Shown here piece after piece: positions 13,658-28,891 of a stretch of 64,000 bases of DNA. This stretch comes from Pseudomonadota bacterium (lineage in GTDB: Bacteria > Bdellovibrionota_C > UBA2361 > OMII01). Position 1 is the stretch's first letter. Each line of letters starts with the position of its first letter. The notes under the pieces were generated by a model, which made no database searches, was not told the DNA's origin, and saw only the letters and a program-made list of their open reading frames with translations. The stretch covers positions 727 through 64,726 of the forward strand of contig JAIXQT010000185.1 of assembly GCA_027485595.1 (NCBI GenBank), written 5' to 3'. The translations under genes and the position numbers were made by a program.

Positions 13658-13919
13658 GAAACATCCTTCCGAGGAGAGCGTCCTCTCACGATGAGGGACG
13701 AACTTCCTCCTTTTATCGTGATGCACAACTGAAATCTAAGCAAACGATTGAGACAAGACATGCCGCTGAGACATCCGGCCCGCCTCGGGACAGAAACGCT
13801 CTCTCAAGAACCGATCCCAACCCTGAACCCCAGCACCACAACAGATATCGGTGATGATCCTCCTGGCTTTTCACCCCGGAGAGACGGATACGTCGGTACG
13901 AGTAAGCAACTGATGCCAG

Positions 13920-14393
13920 CTATTCAAGCCTAGAGAGCTCATCCTGGATTCGTCGCTCCTCCTCTGAGGTGAGGACAGACGCGCTCACGCCGGGCCGATC
14001 GGTGTTAATCTTTTTGCGGCGAATCGAGAGGTACACCGCAACGACCAAACCGATTGCGACGAACCCAAGAGGGACGATCCACACAAACATCCCCACGCCC
14101 GAAAACTTTGGAACGGCGCGGTATTGCTCTCCGAACTTTTGGATTACCTCATTGAGAACCACTTCCGAGGATTTTCCAGCCTCAAGTTCCGCGCGCATCT
14201 GATCCTTCAGCTCCGCGGCCTTCGAACTTGGACAATCGTTCAACGAACGGCCCGGGCAGAATGGACTGAACACCTGCTGATAGAGATGCGTTGCCTCTCG
14301 ATCAAGAGCCTCAGTTCGCTCATCAGCGATGGCATTTCCAACGAAGAACGAGAGACAGAGAGCTAGAATGACATTACTTATGCTACTGCGCAT
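13920..14393 (-). CDS. ccmH: CcmH/CycL-like cytochrome c maturation protein
   Basis: Signal peptide, then FCPGRSLNDCPSSKAAELKDQMRAELEAGKSSEVVLNEVIQKFGEQY and a single C-terminal TM helix, which is the CcmH layout. The Cys pair is spaced CX7C rather than CXXC. Confidence 0.65.
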   Translation of the reverse strand: MRSSISNVILALCLSFFVGNAIADERTEALDREATHLYQQVFSPFCPGRSLNDCPSSKAAELKDQMRAELEAGKSSEVVLNEVIQKFGEQYRAVPKFSGVGMFVWIVPLGFVAIGLVVAVYLSIRRKKINTDRPGVSASVLTSEEERRIQDELSRLE

Positions 14394-15070
14394 GGTGCAC
14401 CAAACTCTGCTCGATAGGTTTCAATACGCGCCTTAAGCTCATCATCAATTCGAAAACCAGATGAGTTAGCGCCAGAGAGATACGAGATAATATCATGAAT
14501 TGAGACGAGAGGGTGAATCTTGATCGAGTGCTTCGCTTCAGCCTCCTCAACAGCAGAGCACGTTCCCGACCCCTTCTCCGCTCGGTCAACGAGGATGATA
14601 ACACCAGCGACCTCAACACCAACCTTCTCTCGCAGTACGGGAACTACCTCATTTAAGGTAGAGCCCGCGGTAACCACGTCCTCAACGAGAACAACACGCA
14701 TGCCCTTGGTGAGAGCCTTGCCGACGTACTCACCACCATCGCCGTGAGTTTTCGCCTCTTTTCGATTGAAGCAAAAACCGATGTTTTTCTTAAAGTTCTG
14801 CTGCAAGCTCATCGCCGTTGAGACGCAGAGAGGGATCCCCTTGTAGGCTGGGCCAAAGATGACGTCGACGTTATCGAGCCCGAGCTCCACGATCTTCTGC
14901 GCGTAGAATGAGGAGAGTTTCGTAATCTTCTCACCATCATCAAAGCCACCCGCGTTAATAAAATAGGGGGCCTTTCGACCGGATTTGAGGGTGAATTCAC
15001 CGAACTTGAGCACCTTGCTCTGGATCAAGAAATCTACGACAGCTCCCCGATCAAGGTGTGTGGTTATCAT
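14378..15070 (-). CDS. pyrE: orotate phosphoribosyltransferase
   Basis: FGEFTLKSGRKAPYFINAG and PRPP loop VVLVEDVVTAGST. Confidence 0.9.
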   Translation of the reverse strand: MITTHLDRGAVVDFLIQSKVLKFGEFTLKSGRKAPYFINAGGFDDGEKITKLSSFYAQKIVELGLDNVDVIFGPAYKGIPLCVSTAMSLQQNFKKNIGFCFNRKEAKTHGDGGEYVGKALTKGMRVVLVEDVVTAGSTLNEVVPVLREKVGVEVAGVIILVDRAEKGSGTCSAVEEAEAKHSIKIHPLVSIHDIISYLSGANSSGFRIDDELKARIETYRAEFGAPCAVA

Positions 15071-15939
15071 ACACTTTTCTCCTCTGATGAAAGAATTGCC
15101 CCTACCCTACCCTCACATTGAACCTGCTCATGTGGAGCGTATGCGCCGTTTTTGAGGAGCGCGAACGCGCACAGTTTATTATTCGCGGCATCGGCGATAG
15201 TTGAAACGATCTTACCGATCGGCTTCGACTCCTTGCCGATCACGCTCGCTTGAGCGGAAAGCTCTTCATGACCCTCAAATACAACGCGCTCAAGGTGCCG
15301 AGGCAATTTGCCCAGGGCGTCGCTTCGCTCAATCACCTCTTGTCCGACGTAACATCCCTTTTGGAAAGATACCGCCTCGCGTAATCCTCCCTCAGTCAGG
15401 ATCATGGAATCGTTAATCTCTGTGGGATACTGAGCGAATCCGTCCGCAAAGCGTTTAAGGTCGTACTCCTTGGTGGAGAGCGGCGGCCCCAAACGCTCAA
15501 TCAACGTAGATCGCACATCGCTCGTTTTATCGGAGACGATCAGAAAGTCCTCCCCATCCTTACCCACTCGACGGCGAGCATGAGCAAGACAGAGAACGTC
15601 TCCGCCAAACTCTGGGCATGATTGACCCACTACATGTCCTACCAGCGCCTCGGACGAACAATCGACGATCGACACCCGGTCAGCCACGATGAAACGACCG
15701 AGCGCCGCGAACAGCGGCTGTCGCTCGCCGCCGTCACTCGCGAGATAAAAGGTGTCGTCGCTCTGGGCGTAGACAGTATAGAGACCCTCAACTCGTCCCT
15801 GAGGGCTCAACGCACCAGCGACCAAAGACCCACCAGCGGAGATCGTTCGGAGATCTTGTGAGAGGCGATTGTTGAGGTATCGACGGGCATCCTTGCCCGT
15901 TACCTTAAAAACTACCGGTGAAGGTTGTAGGTACCACAT
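15067..15939 (-). CDS. ygfZ: folate-binding YgfZ / GcvT-like protein
   Basis: FKVTGKDARRYLNNRLSQD and KGCYVGQEVIER blocks are typical of YgfZ-type aminomethyltransferase-fold proteins. Start placed at the ATG at 15939. Confidence 0.7.
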   Translation of the reverse strand: MWYLQPSPVVFKVTGKDARRYLNNRLSQDLRTISAGGSLVAGALSPQGRVEGLYTVYAQSDDTFYLASDGGERQPLFAALGRFIVADRVSIVDCSSEALVGHVVGQSCPEFGGDVLCLAHARRRVGKDGEDFLIVSDKTSDVRSTLIERLGPPLSTKEYDLKRFADGFAQYPTEINDSMILTEGGLREAVSFQKGCYVGQEVIERSDALGKLPRHLERVVFEGHEELSAQASVIGKESKPIGKIVSTIADAANNKLCAFALLKNGAYAPHEQVQCEGRVGAILSSEEKSV

Positions 15940-15944
15940 CACAC

Positions 15945-16568
15945 TTACCGAATGAGATTTCCTATACGCGAGAGGCTGTCCCACGACCAGAACACGATGA
16001 CAGCTTTGCCTTTAATGCGGTCATCGTCCAAGAACGGCACCGTCCAGAATCGCGAGTCCTTCGATTCATCCCGGTTATCGCCAAGGAGAAGAACATGGTC
16101 GGCGGGAACGGTCTGAGGGCCAAAATCACCCTCCGGGCTACCCCCATGAACCCAACGGGTATAGGGCTCTTTGAGGGGTTCTCCATTGACGAACACCTGG
16201 GCCCCTCGAACCTCAACAGTCTCTCCGGGGAGTCCGATAACTCGCTTGATTATGTGAATGGCCGAGTCATCCTCAGTTGGCGTTGCTGGATCGTCAGGAC
16301 GGGTGAATACCACGACATCTCCTCGCTTCGGAACGCTCCAGCGAATAACGGGCGCATCCACAAACGGCACCCGGAGTCCGTACCAAAATTTCAACACGAG
16401 GATATAGTCACCGATCTGCAAGGTCGGCTTCATGGAGCCTGAAGGGATCTTAAAAGGCTCAACTATCTGAACGCGAATAAGAAAGGCGAGACCAAGGATA
16501 ACAACAAGGGTCTTTACGAAAGCGACGAGCTCCGCCCAAAATCCGGCCGCCTGTTGTTGTTCCGACAT
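15945..16568 (-). CDS. lepB: signal peptidase I (copy 2)
   Basis: PSGSMKPTL and GDNRDESKDSR. Start placed at the ATG at 16568 (MSEQQQAAGFW..). Confidence 0.85.
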   Translation of the reverse strand: MSEQQQAAGFWAELVAFVKTLVVILGLAFLIRVQIVEPFKIPSGSMKPTLQIGDYILVLKFWYGLRVPFVDAPVIRWSVPKRGDVVVFTRPDDPATPTEDDSAIHIIKRVIGLPGETVEVRGAQVFVNGEPLKEPYTRWVHGGSPEGDFGPQTVPADHVLLLGDNRDESKDSRFWTVPFLDDDRIKGKAVIVFWSWDSLSRIGNLIR

Positions 16569-16730
16569 ACTGAACCCTTTCGCCCCTACACGGGACCTCT
16601 CACAAACGGGAGAAGGATAGCCGTCCGGGCGGTATAGGGTCAATCTTAGAGCAGCATCCAAGGGCATGAAAAAAGGCCCCGCCACGCTGAGTAGCTGGGG
16701 CCTTCGTAGTTGTGCTGGTGAGCTTATCCC

Positions 16731-17429: not shown

Positions 17430-19172
17430 CTATGAGCACCGGGAAGCTCGATCACTGCTCCTCATCTGCTCACAGTGCCACGCGCAGAACGCCTCCATCG
17501 TGCAGGATGATGAGAAGCCGATTTCTAGCGCGAGAGCCTGAAACGCCTCGGGGCAATCGCCGATCGTCAGCGCAACAGGGAGGCTCTTAAAGAACTGCCG
17601 ATTGAGCTCCCACAGCTCTTGCGAGAGCGCGACCTCCTCTTCAAGGGGTACACTCATTCGCCGCGAGTTTTGCACGTACGGGAGGAGATACGGCACCCTC
17701 GCGACTGCGCCACCGGGAAGCCGAACGACCAGCCCCCCCTCGCGGGAGCCCACAAGAAAGTCGCGAACATCCCCTGCCTCAACAAGCGCTTCTCCGGCCG
17801 AACACTCCACGGTACGAAGGCTCACCCCTTCGCACACCTCCTGAACTGAGATGACTCCCTCAATGTGGATCCGTTGCGGCAGGAGCTGACAAACCTCTCG
17901 GATCGTTCTCCCCGTCGCGATATCATCATCCATCAGTAGATAAGAACCATCGGGTATCGCCGCAATCTGAACACCCAGATCGGCTGATCCCGGGCGAGGA
18001 AAGATTCCGCTGAGGCGCTCACCACTGGTGACGTTAAACCTGCGTGAGATAGCGATCGAATGATCGCCATCGATACATGCGTCTAAGCTGATAACTGGGT
18101 GGTGCGAGCGAACAATTACCCCGTCCATGCGACGCCGTTGCTCGGAGAGGGAGACCCGCGTTACGGACACCGTGGCGTGTGGCATTCGCCGACGAAAGGC
18201 ACGCTCGAGTATCGTAGCGAGCGACCCAACGAACGCTCGTTGCGCCCACTCAAGGTCAACGCCAACGCGGGCACTCCACCCATCGGTGCTCCAGGCCTCT
18301 TCATCACGGAGAAAAAGTTCAACCTTCGTCGGCACCTTTGTCGCTTGAAGTGCACACAATTCCTGGCTGACCTTGGGAGGAAGCCCACCTGAGCGCCCTT
18401 TTCGGATGACACGAGAGGCGATTGCATTCGGAGTATGGTCGCGCGCCACAAACACCCTTTCTGACCGAGCAGCAAGGGGATCAAGCAAAGCCTCACCATC
18501 TGTGCCAGCGCGGGGTACGATAACGATACGACCGTGGTCAAGGAACGCTTTACTAAATCCTGCGTTATCGCCACCACACACAAAGAATATCTCGATGGGA
18601 TGACCAACTTGAAGGGTGAGGTAGCGTGAGAGTCTTCGCACGATATCCGTGTAATTCACGGCCCGGTCAAGGTAAAGTGCTGCCCACGGGTCGACATCGA
18701 GCCAGGTGCTTTCGCTTGTGGCGAGTCGTGCGAGATGGGTGCGTTCCGCGCCTGACAGTGCCTCCTCGCCACACTTAGTTCGTACGTACCCATCATGATC
18801 GGGGGCGAAGAATCCGCCGACGACCCGCCATCCCCGCTTCTCGACCTCGAGCCGCGCGCTCTCCATCATCGCTAGATGGCCGTTGTGGATCGGGCAAAAG
18901 CCCCCAGATGTTACAAGCACCGCAATCGGCTTGTTTGACTCGGCACCTACCTCGTTGATTGCGTCGCATATCTTGATGAGCGGAGTGACTAAGAGCCTGT
19001 CATCAACCGTCTTGGAGATGTCACAACCTACCGGCACCCCATCATCGAAGAAGCCAGCGGCCTCAAGATGCTCGGCGCCATATCTTATGAGCACCGATGC
19101 GTAGAACGGGTCGGCGCTCGCCTTCGCTATCACACGACTCGAAGCTCCCGCTCGATGTTTGACCATCCCCAT
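17430..19172 (-). CDS. fusion protein: NMNAT-type nucleotidyl(adenylyl)transferase domain plus type I phosphoribosyltransferase domain
   Basis: 580 aa. N-terminal half: VLVTSGGFCPIHNGHLAMM ((H/T)xGH motif) and AIASRVIR (ISSTxxR-like). C-terminal half: PRPP-binding loop SYLLMDDDIATGRTIRE. It is the last gene of the operon, 4 nt after the preceding stop. Confidence 0.75.
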   Translation of the reverse strand: MGMVKHRAGASSRVIAKASADPFYASVLIRYGAEHLEAAGFFDDGVPVGCDISKTVDDRLLVTPLIKICDAINEVGAESNKPIAVLVTSGGFCPIHNGHLAMMESARLEVEKRGWRVVGGFFAPDHDGYVRTKCGEEALSGAERTHLARLATSESTWLDVDPWAALYLDRAVNYTDIVRRLSRYLTLQVGHPIEIFFVCGGDNAGFSKAFLDHGRIVIVPRAGTDGEALLDPLAARSERVFVARDHTPNAIASRVIRKGRSGGLPPKVSQELCALQATKVPTKVELFLRDEEAWSTDGWSARVGVDLEWAQRAFVGSLATILERAFRRRMPHATVSVTRVSLSEQRRRMDGVIVRSHHPVISLDACIDGDHSIAISRRFNVTSGERLSGIFPRPGSADLGVQIAAIPDGSYLLMDDDIATGRTIREVCQLLPQRIHIEGVISVQEVCEGVSLRTVECSAGEALVEAGDVRDFLVGSREGGLVVRLPGGAVARVPYLLPYVQNSRRMSVPLEEEVALSQELWELNRQFFKSLPVALTIGDCPEAFQALALEIGFSSSCTMEAFCAWHCEQMRSSDRASRCS

Positions 19173-19176
19173 AGCG

Positions 19177-20934
19177 TTACCCCTTCATCACCCTCTCGAA
19201 CAGGACATCCGTTCGGATAATCACCTTAGGTGTCCTTCCGCTCCACGGCTCAGAGTCGTGGAGGAGCCTGTGATCAAAGATAAGTGCGCGCCCCGCTGTG
19301 GGCGTTACCGCTGCAATGACCTCCTCATCGCGGGCCTCACGCGTCCAATCCGAGAAGTCACGCGCCGCGTAGGGGAGCGAGAGCTGCGGATCCGTGATAA
19401 AGCGGGTTCGGCCCCCACAAGCGGGGTCGCACTCATTGAGGTAGAGGACGAGGCTCATCAAGGTATGGGTCGCGCCGTCACCTGGATTAAACCCGGCGTC
19501 GTAGTGAACGACGAGCTCCCCACCGTTCTCATACCAGATAAGGCGAAACGCGGGGTTCACCCCGACCGCGCGCCATACGGCGTGCCCGCCCCAATCGGTT
19601 GTCGCGTACTCATCGAAGGTGCGTGGGGAAGCAACGAATGGTGCCACCCGTTCCCACACCCGAGCAGCAAGCTCTGGGGAATAGACCGTCGCCCGCCATG
19701 AGCCCACCTGCGAAGTCCCAGTGGTGAAACCCTTCACGTATCCGTTCGTTCCAACGGGGATTCTGCGCTGACGCGATACCTCGCTGATCAACGCCTCACA
19801 TTCATGGTGGGAGAGTAGCCCCTCAATGACACGAGCCTCACCCCCAACGCCCTCTACGCTCTTTGAGAGGGGAGAAGGTCTCACTCGCTCAAATACGTTG
19901 AGCGGCACAAGGGGATTGAGGGGAAACTCCCCCACAAGTCTCCGCTCGGTGGGTGACACGGTATAGTTCCCCTCCTCTCTCCACCCGCCTGGGACGGCGC
20001 GCTCATAGAGACTCAGGTGCACTGAAGGGTTGCCCCCCACGTACTTGTGCAGATTATATCGGTGCATCTCCTCAATCCGCGCGCCCCATTCTTCAAACTG
20101 CCGGACGGCCCCAGGGGAAAGTGTGCGCACCGCCTCAGTACGCTCCTTCTCGCTCAGGCACAAAAGAGCCGTGTAGAGCTCAACGAAATCATACGGAGCC
20201 CCGATCATCTCAAGGTGGGTTTTCCCGTCGTAAACATCGCCCGTTGGTGCGGCGCCGAGCGTCCCCATCGGAACCTTCAAGAGCTCTCCAAGGCGATACA
20301 CCTCGCTCTTGTGGAGATCCGAGATGATCTGAAGATCCACCATCCCATCTGAGGCCTTCCCGAAGAACCCGAGGTAGCTCCCCTCGTCTCTATTCGTCGT
20401 TCCGCATACGATCGCGGGCGTTCCCGACGCGGAGAGAAGCGCTGAGAGATAGTAGAGAGCCGGAGTGCGAAGGTAGGCGACGAGCTGCCCGTCAGCCCAC
20501 GCGTTTCCCCGAAGATAGGAACTTTCGCTCACAGCACGGCGAGCTGCCTCAAAGGTCGCACTAAGGTCGGGAACAACAAACTCGGCGTTGAAGGCCTTCG
20601 CCACGGCTTTAGCTCGGTCACGCGCGCGATCCTGATCACTCGCCCCCTGATCAACAAAGAAGGGAAGCGATGCCGCAACGATTCGCGATATCGGCGATCC
20701 CTCCATCCGCGACGCGACACTCACAAGCCCCAGCACAACCGCAGAGTCGACGCCGCCACTTACCCCAACCACAAGCCCGGAAAGTTTGTGCACCCGGCAG
20801 TAGTTGTTAATGAGTTCAACTTTTCGAGCGAGGCACTCCGCGGCGTCGAAGCCACGCCTGGCGCGAATCTCGTGGAGCGCCGTAGCAAACTCCCCATTCA
20901 TCGTCTCGTTCATCTCATGTCGTGGAACTAACAT
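19177..20934 (-). CDS. fusion protein: NH3-dependent NAD+ synthetase (NadE-type PP-loop amidoligase) domain plus C-terminal 2OG-Fe(II) oxygenase (prolyl-4-hydroxylase-like) domain
   Basis: 585 aa. PP-loop VVGVSGGVDSAVV and NadE block GTTNRDEGSYLGFFGKASDGMVDLQIISDLHKSEVYRLG. C-terminal VVHYDAGF (HxD), SLVLYLNE..GGRTRF, ALIFDHRLLHDSEP (distal His) and VIIRTDVLF. Confidence 0.8.
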   Translation of the reverse strand: MLVPRHEMNETMNGEFATALHEIRARRGFDAAECLARKVELINNYCRVHKLSGLVVGVSGGVDSAVVLGLVSVASRMEGSPISRIVAASLPFFVDQGASDQDRARDRAKAVAKAFNAEFVVPDLSATFEAARRAVSESSYLRGNAWADGQLVAYLRTPALYYLSALLSASGTPAIVCGTTNRDEGSYLGFFGKASDGMVDLQIISDLHKSEVYRLGELLKVPMGTLGAAPTGDVYDGKTHLEMIGAPYDFVELYTALLCLSEKERTEAVRTLSPGAVRQFEEWGARIEEMHRYNLHKYVGGNPSVHLSLYERAVPGGWREEGNYTVSPTERRLVGEFPLNPLVPLNVFERVRPSPLSKSVEGVGGEARVIEGLLSHHECEALISEVSRQRRIPVGTNGYVKGFTTGTSQVGSWRATVYSPELAARVWERVAPFVASPRTFDEYATTDWGGHAVWRAVGVNPAFRLIWYENGGELVVHYDAGFNPGDGATHTLMSLVLYLNECDPACGGRTRFITDPQLSLPYAARDFSDWTREARDEEVIAAVTPTAGRALIFDHRLLHDSEPWSGRTPKVIIRTDVLFERVMKG

Positions 20935-20942
20935 ACTCCCTC

Positions 20943-21578
20943 CTAGTAAAATACGTGTGTAAGTCGTGCATGTGCCGCCCGATACGGTGAAGCGTTCATG
21001 ATGAGCGCCGCCTTTCGCTCCACCGCGCGGTAACGCTCCTCAAGTACCGACGTCACCTCTCGGGCCGTTGGAACCTCAGGCACCGAGATCTCCCCGAGCC
21101 GAGCAAGATTCCATGTGGCGACAAGGAGCGCGCACGTGGGTTCAAAAGGTCGAGCGGCGATACTTCCAAGTGCGACACCTCCCTCAGGTGTGTCGAGAAA
21201 GAGGACCCGCTTCGGCGCCCTGCGAAATGGCTCAAAGTAGAGCCTCCGTCGTGGAAGCGTGGCGATTAAACGTTTGGCGGCATGTATGAGCGAGCTTTCG
21301 TTCACTACCGTATCGACCGAGTGGCCGCACATCGTCACGCCACGCCGTATCTCATGGGGCGTGAGCGCTGCGCGAGTTACGTGAATATCATCAAGTAATA
21401 CAAGCGACCGGACCGTCTTTCCGCTCTCTTGAAGTCGCCGCGCTACACGTTTGGCGATGGCGACGCTCTCACTGTGCCGCTCGGTGAACGACTCATCCGC
21501 GTAGACGTGCGCGCATTCGATACTCACATCACAACTCACCATCACTCCCTCCGCATCGAAAAGCCACCAGGTCATCAC
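20943..21578 (-). CDS. hypothetical protein (operon ORFan)
   Basis: 211-aa ORF overlapping the upstream gene end by 50 nt, or 14 nt if it starts at 21542. It contains a degenerate PRPP-loop-like string SLVLLDDIHVTRAAL, which is only weak evidence. Confidence 0.55.
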   Translation of the reverse strand: MMTWWLFDAEGVMVSCDVSIECAHVYADESFTERHSESVAIAKRVARRLQESGKTVRSLVLLDDIHVTRAALTPHEIRRGVTMCGHSVDTVVNESSLIHAAKRLIATLPRRRLYFEPFRRAPKRVLFLDTPEGGVALGSIAARPFEPTCALLVATWNLARLGEISVPEVPTAREVTSVLEERYRAVERKAALIMNASPYRAAHARLTHVFY

Positions 21579-22485
21579 CGCTCACCGTCAATCGGTCGAA
21601 GGTAACTGGATCTTGTAAGAGCTCGAGCGAGGTAGCCCCCTTATCAGTGAGCGCCCGCCGCAAACTCACCGCCACCTGCCGAACAAAGCTCATGACATGC
21701 GTTAACTTCAGAGCACGGTGGGTGAAGCTGGGGTAGTCGAGGAGCGCCACGATCCCACCGGGTCGAACCGATGCAACAAGGGTATCCGCGAGAGCAGGAA
21801 CGACGCGATCGATGAGCGAGGCATCGGTTACTATCTCATCCCACACCGCGGCGTATCGCTCTTCGCACGCATACAGCGGCCCAACCTCAACTCCCCGACG
21901 AGCGCAGTAGGAAGAGAGGATCAGATCATCGAGGAGGTGGTTCCCGAACAGAGCGTCGAACCGTGCGGGTGGAGTCTCCGAGAGTGCACCCCTTCGTGTC
22001 GTAGCGTGACCCCGCGCTCCAACGAGCAAAAGAAATCTCGCCGCGTGTGAAAGAGCCTCCGCGTCGGTATCAATAAGCTCAATAGTCCCAGCGAACCCGG
22101 CATAGTGCAGCCCACAGGCCACCTTCGGCACATACCCGCATCCTACCTCAGCGACCCGTCCGTCTTGGGGCAGCTCGATCTGTTGCAGAATCTCCCGCCA
22201 CACCTGCCCTACCGACCAGTAGAAGGTTAGATCGAGGAACAGCTCCTCGGTGCGCTCCGGTATACGGAGCAGATTGCGAGGTGTGAATGAGCTCTGCCGA
22301 TATTCGCGAGAGACGAGGCGACGAGTCGCTCGCGAGAGATCGCCGATGAACCGCTCAACTTCAACCGGGTCATACCTTCGGCTTCGACCGATCCGTACGG
22401 CCCGAGCCGCGGCTCGCCCAAGGCACGCACTCAGCGACGACGTGACCTGCCCACCAGAACACTTCAGTTGACCTATGCCGCCCAT
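21529..22485 (-). CDS. class I SAM-dependent methyltransferase-like protein
   Basis: 318 aa. Motif I-like VAEVGCGYVPKVACGL followed by an acidic IELIDTD. The start overlaps the ATP-grasp stop by 13 nt. Confidence 0.6.
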   Translation of the reverse strand: MGGIGQLKCSGGQVTSSLSACLGRAAARAVRIGRSRRYDPVEVERFIGDLSRATRRLVSREYRQSSFTPRNLLRIPERTEELFLDLTFYWSVGQVWREILQQIELPQDGRVAEVGCGYVPKVACGLHYAGFAGTIELIDTDAEALSHAARFLLLVGARGHATTRRGALSETPPARFDALFGNHLLDDLILSSYCARRGVEVGPLYACEERYAAVWDEIVTDASLIDRVVPALADTLVASVRPGGIVALLDYPSFTHRALKLTHVMSFVRQVAVSLRRALTDKGATSLELLQDPVTFDRLTVSGDDLVAFRCGGSDGEL

Positions 22486-23504
22486 GCCGCATCCCTCCTT
22501 CCGCCTATCGTCTCAGGAAAGATCATGTCCACGATCATCGAGGCCACGTTTCGTGGTCGCCCTCTCCCTGGCGCCATGTGGATCCCGATCCCAGGAACTG
22601 AGTTGATCTCAAGCACTCGATACGAATCCCCATCCTGCTTCTCTCGGATATCTCCGCACATAAAGTCGATACCGGCATAGGGGAGCCCGGGAATGGACGC
22701 GAGTGCCCGGTTGCAGATCTCTATCACCGATGGATGCGCGAGCTCGGTCACATCCGTTGGCACACCCCCCTTCTTTACATTCGAGCTTCCACGCAGATAG
22801 ACCTTCTCTCCAAGGCGGGGCACGGAGGAGAATGAGAGCCCCTGGCGCTTCAGATGCTGGGAAGCCTCACCATCAAGTGCGATCGGACAGAGGCAATTGA
22901 TTCTTGGGTGCGCCCGTCGGTAGCTCTCCCACGTGGCGAGGAGCTCTATTGAGTGAGCACCATCGCCGATGACGTGCGCGGGATCCCGGTGGAGCACAGC
23001 GAACCGACCTCGCGCAGTGAGAAACACTCGAAACTCGTGTCCCGTGAAGTGCTCCTCAACGATCACCTCCTGATTGCCAGATTCGTTCACGATCGCCTGA
23101 ACCGCCGCGCGTACCTCTTCGACGCTTTCAAGGCCCGTAAATACGTTTTCCCCCTGCACACCGAAGCTGGGCTTAACCACAACTGGAAAGCCAAGTGTGC
23201 GCTCCGCGTAGAGAGCTACCTCATCGACCGCTTCGGTCGGAAAATGATGCCCGCGGGGAATTCGCACTCCGGCTCTCTGAAGGAGACGTTTCGTGAGGGA
23301 TTTACTCCCAGCGATAACCGAAGCGGTGTAGGGTACGATGGAGCTATCTATATCCGAGAAGAGCTCTCGATGATCGCCGTAGGTAGCCTCGAGTATCTCA
23401 TTGGTTCGATCAAAGAGGGTTACCTCGATACCGCGGAACATAAGCTCTTGGGCTAGGAACCTCTGATTCGCTCGAAGTTCGGAAACGTTGAAGACCTCTC
23501 GCAT
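22473..23504 (-). CDS. ATP-grasp ligase (cyanophycin synthetase N-domain / GshF-like type)
   Basis: 343 aa. FPVVVKPSFGVQGENVF, VIVEEHFTGHEFRVF, SSNVKKGGVPTDVTELAHP and YRVLEINSVPGI are characteristic ATP-grasp blocks. Confidence 0.8.
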   Translation of the reverse strand: MREVFNVSELRANQRFLAQELMFRGIEVTLFDRTNEILEATYGDHRELFSDIDSSIVPYTASVIAGSKSLTKRLLQRAGVRIPRGHHFPTEAVDEVALYAERTLGFPVVVKPSFGVQGENVFTGLESVEEVRAAVQAIVNESGNQEVIVEEHFTGHEFRVFLTARGRFAVLHRDPAHVIGDGAHSIELLATWESYRRAHPRINCLCPIALDGEASQHLKRQGLSFSSVPRLGEKVYLRGSSNVKKGGVPTDVTELAHPSVIEICNRALASIPGLPYAGIDFMCGDIREKQDGDSYRVLEINSVPGIGIHMAPGRGRPRNVASMIVDMIFPETIGGRRDAAWAA

Positions 23505-23507
23505 GAC

Positions 23508-24092
23508 TCACCCTCCTGTGTTTCGATAGCCACCCGATCTACTTTCGCCACACGAAGATGGGGTACTCCTTGATGAACTAACCACCCGGGCGCGGGCGCG
23601 CTTCTCGAACTCCTTGCCAATAAGCTCAATCAACTCCTCCCGTCGTGCGCGTTCCGGTTCGGTAAGGCCTCCAGCGGAGTCCTTCATGCGAAGGTTGCTG
23701 TACTCATCGAGTAACTCGACCGGAGCGCTCAGCGATCGAAGTGTGAGTGCCTTGCCTGAGACTGCCACCGGGGTTCTTACAAGAACGACCTCCTCGATGC
23801 CGGGGACATCGCGAACACGAACTCTCGTGCCATCATCTCGAGGCTCTATCGAGAGGATCTTTGAAAGGTCACTCGGACGGTAGGCAACTACCCCTGTGGT
23901 TGATTCTGAGATGAGGAGCGAACTTCCCTTGAGGTGGAAGAGGTAGCTCTTGCCTTTGGGAAGCTCGAGGGGAAGCGCTTCGATCACACGAGCGGCGCTC
24001 TCACGCGATCCCCCCAGCCAGTAGTGGTCCCCTGGGGCTCGTGTCACAATGGTTGTCACGTTATCAAACTGCGCGTTTGTCGCTCCTCTCAT
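23508..24092 (-). CDS. hypothetical protein (first gene of the operon)
   Basis: The ORF track starts at the TTG at 24152. The ATG at 24092 is preceded by AGGGGGAAGGG. The stop lies 3 nt before the ATP-grasp start. No motif recognised. Confidence 0.55.
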   Translation of the reverse strand: MRGATNAQFDNVTTIVTRAPGDHYWLGGSRESAARVIEALPLELPKGKSYLFHLKGSSLLISESTTGVVAYRPSDLSKILSIEPRDDGTRVRVRDVPGIEEVVLVRTPVAVSGKALTLRSLSAPVELLDEYSNLRMKDSAGGLTEPERARREELIELIGKEFEKRARARVVSSSRSTPSSCGESRSGGYRNTGG

Positions 24093-24376
24093 ACCCTTCC
24101 CCCTCATGTGAGAGCTCAGAACACTCTGACTCTTGAGAACCACTATGTTCAAATTAATACTAGGCAGCTACTACGTGTATCGATTACCAGGAAACAGAGC
24201 GCAGAATGCGCATCGGTTCACAACACGGCGCATAACGCTCCAGACGCAAAGGATAGTTGGGAAACCCCTTTGAGCATCGAGTCCTACCGCGCCGAGTGAA
24301 AAGAGCTTATTTTCAGACGAAAAATGGCCGGTTCGTTCTCCCATTCCTCTCTCGAGGCGCATCTGCACTGACGAGA

Positions 24377-24619
24377 ATGACGAATCTTCTCAATCCAGAC
24401 GATCCACAACCGCGGTACTCCTGCCAGGTTGCCGTTGCCGGCTGTGTCCGAAAGACGATTCCGAAGCAGGAGCTCATTAAGGCGTTCTCTGATATCTTCA
24501 CCGCAAAAGTCCCGAAGGGGCTGAACTTCCTCGTTGCTAACGCTACAAAAGAGATCGCAGCGTTCAAGAGGGAGCTCCGCAAAGTGCCCGACCACTATAC
24601 TGAGTGTAACGAGCGCTAG
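24377..24619 (+). CDS. possible small Cys-containing protein (80 aa), divergent from the operon
   Basis: Internal ATG of ORF 24257..24619: MTNLLNPDDPQPRYSCQVAVAGCVRK..HYTECNER. Codon usage looks like neighbouring genes. The overlapping minus-strand ORFs are Arg/Cys-rich and look spurious. Confidence 0.35.
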   Translation: MTNLLNPDDPQPRYSCQVAVAGCVRKTIPKQELIKAFSDIFTAKVPKGLNFLVANATKEIAAFKRELRKVPDHYTECNER

Positions 24620-24690
24620 TCTCACATCTTGCGTTACCTTCCGACGGGACTTCGTCGCGACGGAGGCCACCAGCCCTGCTTTTCCGCATG

Positions 24691-25971
24691 TTAGGACAGT
24701 GATGGCACGGAATCTCGTCGATACATCGCAACACCCGCGAAGGTAACGGCGCAATCGCTCGGGTAATCCACCGCCTGATCATAGGCAACTACATCAACTT
24801 CAGGTTTGCCACCCAAACGATTCAAGACGTCGAGCACGAGGTACATCGTTGGAAAGCCACAGACGCGGCGAGCGTCCTGATCCTCGGCGATATGATCGAA
24901 GAGCGCCTTTGGATTGCACTCCTCGATAGCGCGTAGGTATTGCTGGTCGCGGTAGCCTATCTCTCGCATCCGCTCAGGTGACAGCGCGCCATCATCGCCA
25001 AACGAGCGCCCGACGTGCGCCATATCGACTCCGGCGAGAAACGAGATCTTCTCCCCATATTTAGCTCTCTCTTTAATGATCTCGGTGAGAGCTCCAGCAA
25101 AGGTCTCATACTCCTCCCACTCCTGCGGATAGCGCATCGCCTCGAGCATCTGGTGGTAACTTCCCACAAGGATCGGAACAACAGGGGCATCCGATTGCAC
25201 CACTGAAAGGAAGGGAAGTTGCAATTCGAGCGAGTGCTCTCGCCGGTGAAGGTATTGATCAGCGAATGCGCGATCTACACCAAAACGATTCGCTAGCTGC
25301 GTAACGAACTTTTGATCACACGGATGCGTACCGAGCGGAGATTGAAAATCCTTCGCGCAGAGATGAAATATTCGTCTGCTGTACTGATGAGCGGTGCCGA
25401 TCAGGATGTAGGTATCAGCTCGTGATTCGGTGAGCCGGGGATATATGGCGCCGTAACACGCGCCACCCCTTCGGTAATCGATGTGCGGGGCGATAAGACA
25501 CGCGACATCTCGAGTTGTTGCAGGAGTCTCAAGGTCCTTGAGATATCCTCGCACCATCCCGGAAAGCTCCTCTTTGCTTGCGGGATATGCAGCCCCCGCC
25601 AGAGCCGCCGCCCGAACTGGCGCGGTAGTGAACGCATCCTTCGCAAGCTTCTCAGCCGCGAAGTACCGAGCGTTAGCCATAAAGAGATGGTCATCAAGTC
25701 GTGTGATGAGCTCGCGCAGCATATCAGGAGTAAGCCCCTGCGGGGCGAACTTCGCGACTATCTGCTCACTCGTCTGCACGCCATCGAGCTCAACGATAAC
25801 GGGAGCGAACTGTGGCATAAGCGCGAGCGGTGAGGCGGATATCCCGATCGGGCACTGAATGACGAGTGCGTCCTGCCCATCCAGATTGTGCATCCGGATG
25901 TCGAGGGGCCAGCGGAGTTTTGGGCGGGTAAACGTTGCGTCCATGGGGTACACATAAGGGTACATCACCAC
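24691..25971 (-). CDS. MEMO1-family (AmmeMemoRadiSam system protein B-like) protein with ~130-aa N-terminal extension
   Basis: 426 aa. LIAPHIDYRRGGACYG, ILIGTAH and LAGVDMAHVG match the Memo/extradiol-dioxygenase-like fold motifs. Confidence 0.8.
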   Translation of the reverse strand: MVMYPYVYPMDATFTRPKLRWPLDIRMHNLDGQDALVIQCPIGISASPLALMPQFAPVIVELDGVQTSEQIVAKFAPQGLTPDMLRELITRLDDHLFMANARYFAAEKLAKDAFTTAPVRAAALAGAAYPASKEELSGMVRGYLKDLETPATTRDVACLIAPHIDYRRGGACYGAIYPRLTESRADTYILIGTAHQYSRRIFHLCAKDFQSPLGTHPCDQKFVTQLANRFGVDRAFADQYLHRREHSLELQLPFLSVVQSDAPVVPILVGSYHQMLEAMRYPQEWEEYETFAGALTEIIKERAKYGEKISFLAGVDMAHVGRSFGDDGALSPERMREIGYRDQQYLRAIEECNPKALFDHIAEDQDARRVCGFPTMYLVLDVLNRLGGKPEVDVVAYDQAVDYPSDCAVTFAGVAMYRRDSVPSLS

Positions 25972-26037
25972 TCAGGAGGCGATCAAAGGAATTCCCCGTG
26001 AGGCGGGGTGGTCATGGCCCCTGGCGGTGTTCGGTTC

Positions 26038-26388
26038 TCAGCCAGCGTGATGCGGCTCAGCGACGGAGTAGCCTCCCCGCTCTGAAAGCTCTCGACGGAT
26101 AGATGCGGCTATCTCCTCCATCTCTACGTTCCCGCGGCCGGATATCTGGTGCGAATTCACGTTCACCGACGGGGTGGTAGTAGGATCGAACATTACCGAT
26201 ATTCCAGGGGAGGAACTCAACGACCACTTATAATCACCAGTGCGCGAGCGCTCCGGGAGGTGAATAGTACACAACGCCATGCCATACGCGGCGTTTGCAT
26301 CGACGAACCACGCATCGGCGAAGAGCGGGGCGACTACCTTGAGAGCGGCGTTAACTGCATCGACGAATCGTTGAGATCGGACGGGCAT
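26038..26388 (-). CDS. hypothetical protein
   Basis: ORF 26038..26493. The probable start is the ATG at 26388 (MPVRSQRFVDAVNAALKVV..). It is followed on its strand by the hairpin ccccgc-ctca-cgggg. Confidence 0.5.
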   Translation of the reverse strand: MPVRSQRFVDAVNAALKVVAPLFADAWFVDANAAYGMALCTIHLPERSRTGDYKWSLSSSPGISVMFDPTTTPSVNVNSHQISGRGNVEMEEIAASIRRELSERGGYSVAEPHHAG

Positions 26389-26718
26389 CTCAGTTACTTT
26401 CTCATCCGGAAGCGAGGTTTGAGATTGCGCTCGGCGGGGCGGCAGAGAGAGACACGCAAAGGAGAGTCGAGGTTGCAACAGGGGCTGGTGCATACGCGAT
26501 TCCTGACAGTGAAAGCATGTGACGACCGGCTAGGCATAGCACGATTTCGTTAAGGCGTGCGGAACTTTTTAATCCTCATAACAATTGAGGGGGTATTACT
26601 ACAAACGGGAACCATGGGGGCGTTTCCCCTAAAATTGGGGACGCTTCTGCTCTGTAGAAAAACTCTAGATCAAGCGTTGATAGCTACATTGTGGCAGATG
26701 GCTCGCAGAGCGAGTTCT

Positions 26719-26773
26719 CGATAACGTTATTAATGAGCGGCGGTGCTCCGTCCGCTCGGTTTGGTTGTTATGC
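26719..26773 (-). other. attC of cassette 2 (55 bp)
   Basis: Minus strand: GCATAAC-aaccaaacc-GAGCGG-acggagcaccg-CCGCTC-attaataac-GTTATCG (R''-L''...L'-R'). Confidence 0.75.
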
Positions 26774-26779
26774 CGTCCA

Positions 26780-27148
26780 TCAAGAGGAATATTCAATCCC
26801 CAACATGCGCAGTAGATATCTTGCTCCCACTATCATTGCGGCAATCAGCCAGATTTTCGCAATCACGCTAAGCTGGTTGCGCAGTTTCAACTTTCGTATG
26901 TGGAAAGAAAACAAGATTGTCCCAACGACCAATCCAAGTACGAAGAAGATTGCGACATCCCCACGCAAATCCCGACTTAAGTAATGACACCAAAGCTGAC
27001 TTAGCGTTGCCTTGGAGGCTTCAAAGGTTTGGCAGTATAGATTTCTACCAATATGGCAAAGAAAGACCGTGCTTAGCGTGCACGGAACTAGCGTTCCAGT
27101 GAGCAGGAGCAAATGAAGTAAGACCTGTTTCATTAAAAGAGCTACCAA
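26780..27148 (-). CDS. integron cassette 2 ORF: small membrane protein, function unknown
   Basis: 122 aa from a TTG start, or from the ATG at 27133 (MKQVLLHLLLLTG). Three or four hydrophobic helices. It starts 12-30 nt after the cassette boundary and ends 7 nt before attC. Confidence 0.6.
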   Translation of the reverse strand: MVALLMKQVLLHLLLLTGTLVPCTLSTVFLCHIGRNLYCQTFEASKATLSQLWCHYLSRDLRGDVAIFFVLGLVVGTILFSFHIRKLKLRNQLSVIAKIWLIAAMIVGARYLLRMLGIEYSS

Positions 27149-27160
27149 GACTCAAGAGCG

Positions 27161-27253
27161 GCATAACGTTTGACGTGAGGGGCGGCCGGAGCCGCAGGCG
27201 GAGGGAACCGCAAGCGCAGCTTGCGGACGTCCCTCTCGACGGAATTGTTAGCC
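27161..27253 (-). other. attC of cassette 1 (93 bp)
   Basis: Minus strand: GGCTAAC-aattcc-GTCGAGAGGGA...GACGTGAGGGG(rc)-aaac-GTTATGC. It is an imperfect inverted repeat. The TAA stop of the cassette 1 ORF lies inside R''. Confidence 0.75.
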
Positions 27254-27670
27254 GACATAGTGCTGCACCCAAGGGTTTTTGACGACTGACGCCAGCTGCG
27301 ATGGCTCAAACTCGAAGCCAAAGGAAACGGAATGCCAGAAACTTTGGTTTTCGGAAATGATGTGATGGCCAATGGAGCCCTGAACGGCCAACTGCCCTCT
27401 TGAATTTGCGGCGAACACTTTTAGCGTTAGCTCATTGGGGGACATCGACGACAGATTGGCTTCGCCCGCGAGAGCCTGATTGAGAGCGACCAACTCCGCG
27501 CAGAATTTTTTCATTTCTTCCGCGTGAGCCCACGCAGAGGCTGTGCCCTCGAACCCGTGCGAGCCCACAGATACTTCTATGTTTGCATCCTCGAAGCTGG
27601 GGAGCTGTGGCTCCTCTTCAACGAAGACACTCATCTCGAAAAAATTGTCGTGATTGGTAAGTCGGAACAT
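27248..27670 (-). CDS. integron cassette 1 ORF: hypothetical soluble protein
   Basis: 140 aa. The ATG lies 7 nt downstream of the GTTAGCC junction. No motif recognised. Confidence 0.65.
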   Translation of the reverse strand: MFRLTNHDNFFEMSVFVEEEPQLPSFEDANIEVSVGSHGFEGTASAWAHAEEMKKFCAELVALNQALAGEANLSSMSPNELTLKVFAANSRGQLAVQGSIGHHIISENQSFWHSVSFGFEFEPSQLASVVKNPWVQHYVG

Positions 27671-27677
27671 TGATGAC

Positions 27678-27684
27678 GGCTAAC
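27678..27684 (-). other. attI / first-cassette recombination junction (G|TTAGCC)
   Basis: The minus-strand GTTAGCC is the exact reverse complement of R'' (GGCTAAC) of attC at 27247..27253. Confidence 0.7.
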
Positions 27685-27910
27685 ATAGGTATTGTGCAGA
27701 TCCGGTGATCTAGCACGTTTACTCATTCCTTTCATCGTATCCCAGCGGCCGTCCCGCCCTCAATCAAAAATAAACCATCATGGATTCAGTCAATTAGAGC
27801 GACAAAGCTACCTTTTCGGCTAGTCCGGTATGTATACCTGAGAGTGTAGATCACCAGATCGGTTGTTCTGGGTCGCGAAACCTTTCTCCGGATTTTTCGA
27901 TACCCCTAGG

Positions 27911-28891
27911 ATGGAATCACATGAACGACCCAAAAAATTTCTGGATCTCGTAAGGGAACGAATTCGACTCCGGCATCTTAGTTATACGACCGAGAAGAGC
28001 TACATCGGGTGGATTCGAAGATTCATTCTCTTTCATGGCAAGAGGCATCCGCAGGAGATGGGCGAGGAGCATCTTGTGGCGTTCCTATCAGACCTCGCGG
28101 TTCAACGGAACTGTTCACCCGGCACTCAGAACCAAGCTCTCAACGCCATCGTTTTTCTCTTTCGGCATGTGCTTCGGCGAGACGTGGGTGAGTTTAAAGG
28201 TATTATGTGGTCCCGGCGAAAGCGGAGGGTCCCGGAGGTCATGACGAGGGAGGAGGTAGCGCGCGTACTTCAAGCGCTGAAGCACCAGCCCCAGAAATGG
28301 CTTATCGGATGTTTGCTGTATGGATGTGGTCTGCGACTATCAGAGGCGCTCCATATTAGGGTCAAGGATATCGAGTTCGGCCAGGGATTCATCGCCATTC
28401 GCGATGCCAAAGGAGATAAAGATCGAATTGTGCCACTCCCAAAAAGGTTGGTGGCTCCGCTACGAAAGCAGCTCTCAATTGCAGAGGGTATCCATCAGGC
28501 TGACATCAAGGCCGGATATGGTCGGGTGTCACTACCGTTTGCTTTGTCGAAGAAGTACCCGAACGCCGACCGGGAATGGGCGTGGCAGTATCTCTTTCCC
28601 TCAACGAAGCTATCGCGAGACCCTCGCAGCGGCGATATTAAGCGCCACCACATATTCGACACCTTCATGGACAACGCTGTGAAGCAGGCGGCGCTCGCCG
28701 CGGGTCTCTCAAAACGGATCACCTGCCACACCTTTCGCCACTCCTTCGCGACTCATCTCCTCGAGAACGGACGGGATATTCGTCTCATTCAGGAGCTGCT
28801 CGGGCACAGCGATGTGAAGACCACCATGATCTATACACACGTGGCGAAGTCACCGGTGCCGCGCGTGGTGAGTCCGTTTGATGAGTTGTAG
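27911..28891 (+). CDS. intI: integron integrase
   Basis: Tyrosine recombinase boxes GLRLSEAL, HTFRHSFATHLL and MIYTHV, plus the IntI-specific additional domain ALSKKYPNADREWAWQYLFPSTKLSRDPRSGDIKRHHI. Start taken at the ATG at 27911; the ORF track starts at the TTG at 27863. Confidence 0.92.
   Translation: MESHERPKKFLDLVRERIRLRHLSYTTEKSYIGWIRRFILFHGKRHPQEMGEEHLVAFLSDLAVQRNCSPGTQNQALNAIVFLFRHVLRRDVGEFKGIMWSRRKRRVPEVMTREEVARVLQALKHQPQKWLIGCLLYGCGLRLSEALHIRVKDIEFGQGFIAIRDAKGDKDRIVPLPKRLVAPLRKQLSIAEGIHQADIKAGYGRVSLPFALSKKYPNADREWAWQYLFPSTKLSRDPRSGDIKRHHIFDTFMDNAVKQAALAAGLSKRITCHTFRHSFATHLLENGRDIRLIQELLGHSDVKTTMIYTHVAKSPVPRVVSPFDEL

Follow-up and report, generated by a model that had tools for sequence, protein, structure and literature searches.

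Nicotinamide adenine dinucleotide (NAD) synthesis of the Preiss-Handler and Francisella types involves PncB for phosphoribosyl transfer, then NadD or NadM for adenylyl transfer, then NadE or nicotinamide mononucleotide synthetase for ATP-dependent amidation. Phages can reconstitute NAD+ with dedicated enzyme pairs: Adps and Namat in NARP1, Nampt and Nmnat in NARP2, PnuC and NadR in NARP3. A more distant precedent is found in archaeosine synthesis, where the radical S-adenosylmethionine (SAM) enzyme RaSEA strips the lysine skeleton after lysine transfer by ArcS, giving an unsubstituted amidine (PMC11298593). Here we describe a six-gene operon on the minus strand, at 17430-24152, of a 64,000-nucleotide stretch of contig JAIXQT010000185.1 (assembly GCA_027485595.1, Bdellovibrionota_C in GTDB). 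This whole stretch is called the window, and coordinates refer to it unless a locus is named. The operon probably represents a horizontally mobile, self-contained cassette for the assembly of a pyridine (NAD-type) dinucleotide. We give this reading a probability of roughly 0.55; the substrates, order of steps, product and role that it implies are those we infer from sequence comparison.

The open reading frame (ORF) listing of the window shows six ORFs in succession, here named g1 to g6 in the direction of transcription:

23508-24092, minus strand, g1: 194 aa (longest possible ORF 23508-24152), Gly-Gly-tailed protein
22473-23504, minus strand, g2: 343 aa, predicted ATP-grasp ligase
21529-22485, minus strand, g3: 318 aa, possible methyltransferase-like protein
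20943-21542, minus strand, g4: 199 aa (longest possible ORF 20943-21578), predicted aminoacyl-tRNA synthetase (aaRS)-like domain
19177-20934, minus strand, g5: 585 aa, two-domain fusion
19945-20934, minus strand, g5 N-terminal domain: NadE-type PP-loop amidoligase with an SGGVDS motif and without a glutaminase domain
19177-19944, minus strand, g5 C-terminal domain: P4H/PhyH-like 2-oxoglutarate (2OG)-Fe(II) oxygenase, HxD...H triad and Arg intact
17430-19172, minus strand, g6: 580 aa, two-domain fusion
18318-19172, minus strand, g6 N-terminal half: conserved 80-aa leader and eukaryote-like NMNAT (HIGH-family nucleotidyltransferase)
17430-18317, minus strand, g6 C-terminal half: divergent type I phosphoribosyltransferase (PRTase)-like domain with the phosphoribosyl pyrophosphate (PRPP) loop LLMDDDIATGRT, followed by a conserved DxRDFLxGSxxGGLVV...PYLLPYV module

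From g1 to g6 the junctions measure +3, -13, -14, +8 and +4 nt, so that g3 shares 13 nt with g2 and 14 nt with g4. The tight packing claimed in the first-pass annotation of this DNA is thus borne out. The start of g1 was placed at ATG 24092, with a ribosome-binding site, GGGGGAAGG, 5 nt upstream; all 13 homologues have 194 aa. The start of g4 was set at 21542 by its homologues (199 aa). Non-coding borders of about 190 nt upstream and 375 nt downstream delimit the six-gene block.

With Preiss-Handler and Francisella-type synthesis the cassette shares phosphoribosyl transfer, adenylyl transfer and ATP-dependent amidation. Its NadE domain belongs to the NAD_synthase family and its NMNAT domain to the HIGH-family NMNATs. 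It differs from these routes in that the phosphoribosyltransferase (PRT) domain is type I-like and not type II, the activities are fused and a 2OG or radical SAM enzyme is integral. In addition, the NadE-like paralogue co-exists with canonical NadE, and ATP-grasp, methyltransferase-like and aaRS-like genes are added. Like NARP1-3, it looks like a self-contained NAD-building set of phages and mobile elements; the NMNAT-PRT protein is found in jumbo-phage contigs, beside PnuC or NadR and beside TIR genes. Unlike NARP1-3, the window has no PRPS-like Adps, NAMPT-family Namat or Nampt, PnuC or NadR. No NAMPT, NadR, PnuC or Nudix homologue was found among its ORFs. The PRT is of another fold class, NadE, 2OG, g4 and the other accessory proteins have no counterpart in NARP1-3, and an anti-defence role is putative here. 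The architecture had been noted at first reading as undescribed. Indeed, no published description of it was found in the full-text literature or in the NAD papers of the Aravind laboratory (a comparison that left aside the 2012 de Souza & Aravind paper), and the NARP1-3 architectures differ.

The N-terminal part of g5 scores 85.8 bits with Pfam NAD_synthase (PF02540, cut-off 21) and 78.7 bits with the nadE domain model TIGR00552, above the cut-off of 63.65. Its PP-loop reads GVSGGVDSAV at residues 57-66, and its top match in the PDB is the Francisella enzyme 3fiu (E 9e-16). The domain falls far short of the full-length NadE equivalog models (NF010587, 89.7 against 255). It is a paralogue separate from canonical NadE; the two are found together in locus L040. 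The C-terminal part of g5 matches 2OG-FeII_Oxy_3 (PF13640, 31.6 bits, cut-off 27) and PhyH (22.6 bits, cut-off 22), and its profile matches prolyl 4-hydroxylase 5iax (E 2e-4). H477-Y-D479, H559 and R574, predicted to form the iron and 2OG site, are invariant in 16 homologues.

The NMNAT part of g6 is recognized by CTP_transf_like (PF01467, 23.5 bits, cut-off 21) and by NMNAT structures in the PDB (9rpk, E 5e-11; human NMNAT1 and NMNAT3 also match). It stays below the TIGR00482 equivalog threshold (38 against 112). Across 16 diverse homologues H96-x-G98-H99, D161-P162-W163 and S253/R257 are invariant; g6 itself has H96-N-G98-H99. The C-terminal half is more divergent. In the PRPP loop, LLMDDDIATGRT, the DDD, G and T residues are invariant in 16-18 diverse homologues, as are D468, R470 and D471. 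The only PDB match of the profile is to APRT, over the PRPP-loop region alone (E 0.0065). Comparison with the window's own bona fide type I PRTase by hhalign gives 47% (E 2e-4). Pfam Pribosyltran reaches 12.3 bits (cut-off 26.3), and sub-threshold PRTase matches occur in 7 of 18 members. We therefore use the term type I PRT-like, the resemblance being confined to the surroundings of the PRPP loop. At the level of motif and profile, the earlier assignment to type I and not type II holds. More generally, all the domain assignments of the first-pass annotation were recovered, those of the PRT and the methyltransferase remaining below family thresholds. Several longer g6 homologues (P0048, P0059, P0065, P0077, P0078) begin with a short J-domain-like segment (for example GDLYEILGV) that has no HPD motif.

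Homologues of g6 are rare, with 79 clusters among 5.8 billion proteins. The family was found in 53 species-representative genomes, the closest being Bdellovibrionota (51-56% identity). The others are Myxococcota, Patescibacteria of the Candidate Phyla Radiation (CPR), Chthonomonadales, Obscuribacter, Elusimicrobia, Streptomyces and other Actinomycetes, and Gammaproteobacteria. It is also carried by plasmids of Variovorax, Streptomyces, Leptospira and Paenibacillus, where the trio is split into three genes. There, the RefSeq hypothetical protein beside nadE and the 2OG gene merits re-annotation. Further members lie in IMG/VR viral contigs of 182-462 kb, predicted to be jumbo phages. These metagenomic contigs are the only phage carriers, as tblastn with g6 gave no match among GenBank isolated phages. 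In fungi the family takes the form of a 2OG-NMNAT-PRT fusion with no NadE nearby.

In some 50 of the 53 species-representative loci the NadE-like domain directly precedes NMNAT-PRT. The order NadE-2OG-NMNAT-PRT is constant and the fusion points vary, from three genes to one protein; in Myxococcota all four domains are found in a single protein of 1100-1480 aa. Constant order with variable fusion is classical evidence that the four predicted activities work together.

All six genes, in the same order and with similar spacing, recur in independent contigs from Bdellovibrionota-like genomes (L001/L002, L008 and the context of P0024), with 39-82% identity per protein; L003 and L007 are truncated contigs. 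The flanks of these copies are unrelated, with a sigma factor and NAD kinase in one and PcfJ in another. Because the six-gene order recurs amid unrelated flanks, the cassette appears to move as a unit. Its description as a unit at first reading was correct, yet understated, since the pair of fusion genes forms the core of a wider module, from which the other four can be absent. Homologues of g2 and g3 stand beside the core in CPR loci that have neither g1 nor g4, and g4 occurs in phages without g2 or g3. Given these associations, g1-g4 are best seen as separable add-ons and not as one obligatory complex. ATP-grasp and methyltransferase-like genes accompany the core in Bdellovibrionota, Peribacteria, Microgenomates and a gammaproteobacterial metagenome-assembled genome (MAG). 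In L031 a 220-aa gene lies between the two; no homology to g1 or g4 was found for its product. Beside this variant, two unrelated MAGs (L012:13264-18906 and L031:6283-12169) also have in common a trio of genes for an acidic low-complexity protein of 820-934 aa, an AAA-like protein of 513-578 aa and a protein of 319-360 aa.

The oxidative partner was counted in 59 non-redundant loci that have both NadE-like and NMNAT-PRT domains. A 2OG/PhyH oxygenase alone is present in 46 of them and a radical SAM enzyme alone in 10; one locus has both, and two have neither, one of these being a contig end. Fisher's exact test for this mutual exclusivity gives 1e-8, on loci that are not independent. Most radical SAM partners are closely related to RaSEA (195 bits with TIGR01210). 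In Elusimicrobia four radical SAM genes take the place of the 2OG gene. Three related phage loci that have no NadE are also devoid of either kind of oxidative enzyme. The distribution indicates that the oxidative enzyme is an obligatory partner of the NadE-like core. The oxygenase had been counted among tailoring enzymes; a merely optional tailoring role does not agree with its replacement by radical SAM enzymes in some lineages. In 11 loci an amino-acid racemase gene lies directly upstream of the NadE-like gene.

The g4 product, one of the two proteins initially regarded as ORFans, loses that status. It has no Pfam match. Its AlphaFold2 model is of high confidence (predicted local distance difference test, pLDDT, 92.5), and Foldseek against the PDB places ArgRS 1iq0 on top (E 1e-7, query TM-score, TMq, 0.66-0.69), followed by CysRS, GluRS, MetRS and MshC. 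Over these class I aaRS and MshC matches the values range from E 1e-7 to 1e-3 and TMq 0.55-0.69, and BFVD agrees. The sequence has neither a HIGH nor a KMSKS motif and no anticodon-binding domain; a single conserved His (ECAHIY) follows strand 1. The model thus argues for a minimal HUP-class Rossmannoid domain of aaRS-like fold that is not an aaRS. By exhaustive profile search the family comprises 426 representative clusters, with proteins of about 200 aa. In P0032 a g4-like domain is fused to the C-terminus of NMNAT-PRT. A g4-like gene directly follows the NMNAT-PRT gene on a Paenibacillus megaplasmid, and lies 2-4 kb from it in three related jumbo-phage contigs. In these contigs a conserved gene of 415-495 aa without Pfam or PHROG match always follows the g4-like gene (L065:13593-14840, L066:10132-11406, L068:13629-15116).

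For g3, all matches to Pfam and NCBIfam models are below cut-off (MTS, E 0.033; TIGR04188, E 0.007), and its sequence has no match in the PDB. Alignment by hhalign with the SCO2525/NNMT-family methyltransferase domain, which elsewhere is fused to g4-like domains, gives 38% (E 3e-4). Conserved motifs are VAEVxCGxVPK (VAEVGCGYVPK in g3), D139 and NHxxDD; CPR homologues do not have GxGxG. The assignment of g3 as class I SAM-methyltransferase-like is therefore weak. P0195, P0238 and P0256 each combine a g4-like domain with a methyltransferase of the NNMT/PNMT/TEMT type, scoring as SCO2525 family. Such fusions mirror the overlapping g3-g4 pair and thus tie g4 to the other components of the system. 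Relatives of g4 also match the SCO2522 family model weakly, down to E 1e-10. Together these matches suggest a broader, uncharacterised pairing of a ligase-like protein with a methyltransferase that would include the Streptomyces SCO2521-2525 cluster. As in the SCO2522/SCO2525 pair of this actinobacterial cluster, known from NCBIfam, both kinds of protein are present. Unlike in that pair, all scores fall well short of the family cut-offs, SCO2522 has about 314 aa against 199 for g4, and the g3-SCO2525 link is weak. Searching the full-text literature for the gene names SCO2522 and SCO2525 turned up no function.

The g2 protein matches the G domain of cyanophycin synthase (7wac, E 9e-44 over residues 2-336) and GshAB (3ln7, E 4e-35). 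Its match to TIGR02068 (E 2e-67, 227.7 bits, cut-off 850) covers profile positions 162-474 alone. As only the G domain of the N-G-M architecture is present, g2 appears to be a stand-alone ATP-grasp ligase of the CphA G-domain/GshF C-terminal type and not a cyanophycin synthetase. Homologues of g2 adjoin the core in CPR loci L012, L022 and L031. CphA-type ATP-grasp enzymes (CphA1) and glutathione synthetase act on peptide C-terminal carboxylates by activating them.

For g1 the status of ORFan still stands: no fold is recognisable and Pfam gives no match. It is known solely from Bdellovibrionota-type cassettes. Its AlphaFold2 model, of poor confidence (pLDDT 57, below 50 in the tail), shows a beta-rich centre, a helical hairpin and a disordered C-terminal tail. 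Foldseek with this low-confidence model gave nothing significant, the PH/PTB-like matches being insignificant. The tail is invariant as SSRSxPxxCGESRSxGxRxxGG-COOH and always ends the protein (in the window, …GESRSGGYRNTGG). It is the most conserved segment, including in the 48%-identical L008 copy. These features make g1 a candidate for a carrier, a scaffold or a substrate. The parallel with CphA1 is that g2 is a close homologue of its G domain, and that g1 offers a flexible C-terminal carboxylate where CphA1 extends a peptide C-terminus; unlike CphA1, g2 has no N and M domains. Since CphA-type enzymes activate peptide C-termini, the g1 tail is invariant and flexible, and the gap between g1 and g2 is 3 nt, g2 might load or extend the g1 tail, a suggestion by analogy in which our confidence is low. 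Unlike the LysW and PEARL carriers, g1 is unrelated in sequence and ends with Gly-Gly instead of Glu, and the operon has no LanB-like PEARL enzyme or release protease. No GG-ending carrier analogue was found beside the CPR ATP-grasp genes.

Genes related to NAD and to conflict are recurrent neighbours of the core. PnuC and NadR are found in L022, L051 and L070, and Nudix/ADP-ribose-pyrophosphatase-like genes in several core loci. One cassette is carried by a PcfJ-flanked island, and the phage-like Paenibacillus megaplasmid that bears the module also carries macro and SLOG genes. On the Leptospira interrogans plasmid p1 (NZ_CP043881.1, L061:6497-14378) a Nudix-nadE-2OG-NMNAT/PRT block abuts HNH endonuclease, TIR, abortive-infection and integrase genes. 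An apparent NAD-building module thus stands beside a likely NAD-consuming defence gene. Elusimicrobia (L040:725-11584; also L036 and L041) have an 11-kb same-strand array of NAMPT, canonical NadE, NrtR, four radical SAM proteins, a 192-aa protein of no known family, NadE-like and NMNAT-PRT. This array appears to be an anaerobic variant of the module with a link to NrtR and with radical chemistry beyond one RaSEA-like enzyme. In two fungal assemblies (L064:5054-10595, L072:4471-9244) a 2OG-NMNAT-PRT gene without introns (864 and 846 aa) and a gene with a heterokaryon-incompatibility (HET) cell-death domain form a divergent pair. The arrangement seems to be conserved in eukaryotes and would couple an NAD-type synthesis enzyme with an allorecognition gene.

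A working model can be drawn from these observations. The type I PRT-like domain of g6 would first join a salvaged pyridine carboxylate or carboxamide to PRPP. The NadE-like PP-loop domain of g5 would next adenylate the ring carboxylate for conversion to the carboxamide, and the NMNAT domain of g6 would finally add AMP from ATP. The 2OG oxygenase would supply an obligatory fourth activity, for which a RaSEA-like radical SAM enzyme would substitute in anaerobic lineages. The amide nitrogen of this glutaminase-less NadE paralogue may come from an amino-acid amine, the N-C bond then being cut by the oxidative enzyme to leave -CONH2. We propose this nitrogen-donor step because a RaSEA-like enzyme replaces 2OG, in analogy with the succession of ArcS and RaSEA in archaeosine synthesis. 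The racemase genes upstream of NadE-like would fit an amino-acid donor. As in the ArcS-RaSEA system, a RaSEA-like radical SAM enzyme accompanies the NadE-like protein where 2OG is missing. Unlike in that system, the module has no ArcS, tRNA or 7-deazaguanine, and the group to be modified would be a carboxylate that a PP-loop enzyme activates; the analogy is drawn from co-occurrence only. Among the accessory proteins of the Bdellovibrionota-type form, g2 probably acts on the C-terminal Gly-Gly carboxylate of g1, and the g3/g4 pair may have as its substrate either that intermediate or the nucleotide. The g1-g4 sub-module would thus either feed the line, with a base or a nitrogen donor on a carrier, or tailor the product. 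NAD+ or a very close analogue is the most likely product. It would sustain or rebuild the NAD pool where this is limiting or attacked, as in the settings of phage, plasmid, predator, epibiont and TIR or HET neighbours. A portable line for NAD-type synthesis or reconstitution is in our view the most economical account of the operon.

Several points weigh against this account. Making plain NAD+ from nicotinate needs no 2OG enzyme, ATP-grasp ligase, methyltransferase-like protein, g4 or g1; as these extra genes are conserved, chemistry beyond textbook NAD may be involved. NH3-dependent single-domain NadE enzymes need no partner, so the nitrogen-donor idea is not required. The fungal 2OG-NMNAT-PRT proteins, with no NadE nearby, would equally fit oxidation of the base. 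Canonical NAD genes are also present in Elusimicrobia (L040) and in Streptomyces. The PRT call depends on one motif and on sub-threshold profile scores, the phylogenetic kinship of the loci means that the co-occurrence statistics overstate independence, and the genes adjoining the operon in the window include no defence or NADase gene. An alternative for the oxidative step is that it takes place on the base itself, for example as N-dealkylation or as oxidation of a methyl group to a carboxylate. We consider N-demethylation of trigonelline or N-methylnicotinamide less likely, given that in prokaryotes the presence of the oxidative enzyme follows that of NadE-like and that a RaSEA-like enzyme stands in for it in anaerobes. 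De novo formation of the pyridine ring from aspartate was considered in view of the racemase and the oxygenase, and rejected as insufficient: neither a C3 donor nor a cyclase is present, and these genes are missing from the forms in fungi and phages.

Of the three hypotheses that accompanied the first-pass annotation, NAD replenishment gains most support, from genomic context; a modified dinucleotide is kept alive by the extra enzymes, and linkage to a peptide or protein gains a candidate in the invariant GG tail of g1. The modified NAD-like dinucleotide is a serious rival, which we hold as less probable than portable NAD-type synthesis. The PRT-like domain would take a non-canonical base, 2OG would hydroxylate, g3 methylate and g2 and g4 attach an amino acid, to give a signal, an antimetabolite or toxin, or an analogue that resists or inhibits NADases. 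Such a product would explain why the PRT-like domain differs from the known nicotinate, nicotinamide and quinolinate PRTases, all of type II, and why the oxidative enzyme is obligatory. It would also account for the ATP-grasp and methyltransferase-like genes that recur with the core across unrelated phyla and for the fusion of g4-like domains to NNMT-family methyltransferases. The canonical NadE and NAMPT of the Elusimicrobia locus make plain NAD synthesis redundant there, and many carriers are predators or antibiotic producers (Myxococcota, Bdellovibrionota, Streptomyces). However, the NMNAT domain retains the eukaryotic NMNAT signature, including the DPW tryptophan, and the NadE domain exceeds the nadE domain cut-off. 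Three jumbo phages with NMNAT-PRT and g4 only are better suited to fast NAD rebuilding than to natural-product synthesis. The window operon contains no exporter, immunity gene or regulator, and CPR genomes are poor in secondary metabolism. An extension of the nitrogen-donor step, which we regard as rather unlikely, would amount to a new way of forming a carboxamide. The NadE paralogue would use an amino-acid amine (borne by the g1 tail, once ligated there by the ATP-grasp enzyme, in the Bdellovibrionota form) and the O2- and 2OG-dependent oxygenase, or in anaerobes the RaSEA-like enzyme, would cut the N-C bond. With the new type I-like pyridine PRTase and g4, this would make a fourth, widespread NAD(+)-reconstitution route, used against NAD-depleting immunity by jumbo phages, megaplasmids, predatory and epibiotic bacteria and fungi, or would yield a NADase-resistant analogue.

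It is doubtful that the g1 protein is itself the true substrate, carrying a nucleotide-linked or amino-acid-extended group on its Gly-Gly end, either as a scaffold of the LysW or PEARL type or as a permanent target of modification. Its disordered tail is the most conserved part and always ends in GG, the gene is 3 nt from g2, and g2 belongs to the ATP-grasp clade of the CphA G domain and glutathione synthetase-type enzymes. The fold of g4 is that of amino-acid-activating class I aaRS and MshC, and g3 weakly matches the ATP-grasp peptide-maturase methyltransferase model TIGR04188. Yet g1 is limited to one lineage, and as the core and g2-g4 occur without it, it would not be a general substrate. 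The operon has no protease or release enzyme, the model of g1 is of low confidence, and the need for NMNAT, PRT and NadE is left unexplained. Highly improbable, finally, is an ordinary housekeeping replacement, in which a non-orthologous Preiss-Handler pathway makes NAD+ only and the four upstream genes are merely co-transcribed. It can draw on the presence of all three textbook chemistries, on the occurrence of the core in small-genome CPR bacteria and on the housekeeping flanks of the window operon. However, six genes with translationally coupled junctions travel together in several genomes with different flanks, g4 is fused to NMNAT-PRT in P0032, and a 2OG or radical SAM partner is near-universal. 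Plasmids and phages also carry the module, and elsewhere it adjoins canonical NadE and NAMPT; since Elusimicrobia and Streptomyces have canonical NAD genes as well, it is not simply housekeeping.

If portable NAD-type synthesis is correct, the family bears on two subjects. NAD depletion and rebuilding are central to the conflict between phages and bacteria, as illustrated by NARP1-3, and NAD salvage is a key dependency of small-genome symbionts and predators. The family would add a pyridine PRTase that is not of type II, a NadE paralogue tied to an oxygenase or radical SAM partner, a 426-cluster family of minimal aaRS-like enzymes and possibly a carrier protein. Its spread from Bdellovibrionota and CPR to jumbo phages and fungal HET loci looks like a portable answer to an NAD-related problem outside current pathway maps. 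We see a realistic chance of new chemistry within NAD-type nucleotide synthesis or reconstitution.

The surroundings of the operon in the window were also analysed. PADLOC models gave no defence-system assignment, with generic 2OG and methyltransferase-like matches only, and g1-g4 and g6 are without a family in PHROGs. No near-identical DNA emerged when the region was compared by Megablast with phage and plasmid collections. No tRNA was found in the window, and Rfam found no riboswitch or other RNA, the sole match in the region being a chance one to RsmV (E 0.13). Promoter and terminator scans of the operon region gave results at or below shuffle expectation. The flanks are of housekeeping type, with UbiA, two LepB paralogues, CcmH, a PRTase and a YgfZ-like gene, and a Memo-like gene upstream. 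On the minus strand at 12968-16685, two paralogous signal peptidase I genes (12968-13726 and 15945-16685) enclose CcmH, a 230-aa type I PRTase and a YgfZ/GCV_T-like gene. Upstream of the operon, the Memo-like gene (24691-25971, minus strand) has a 120-aa N-terminal extension. Also upstream, 3.7 kb from the operon, is a XerC/D-type tyrosine recombinase gene (27863-28891, plus strand). With a GC content of 0.587 the operon exceeds its two flanks (0.549 and 0.536). Together with this raised GC content, the Memo-like gene and the recombinase (24284-28891) could mark the boundary of an island.

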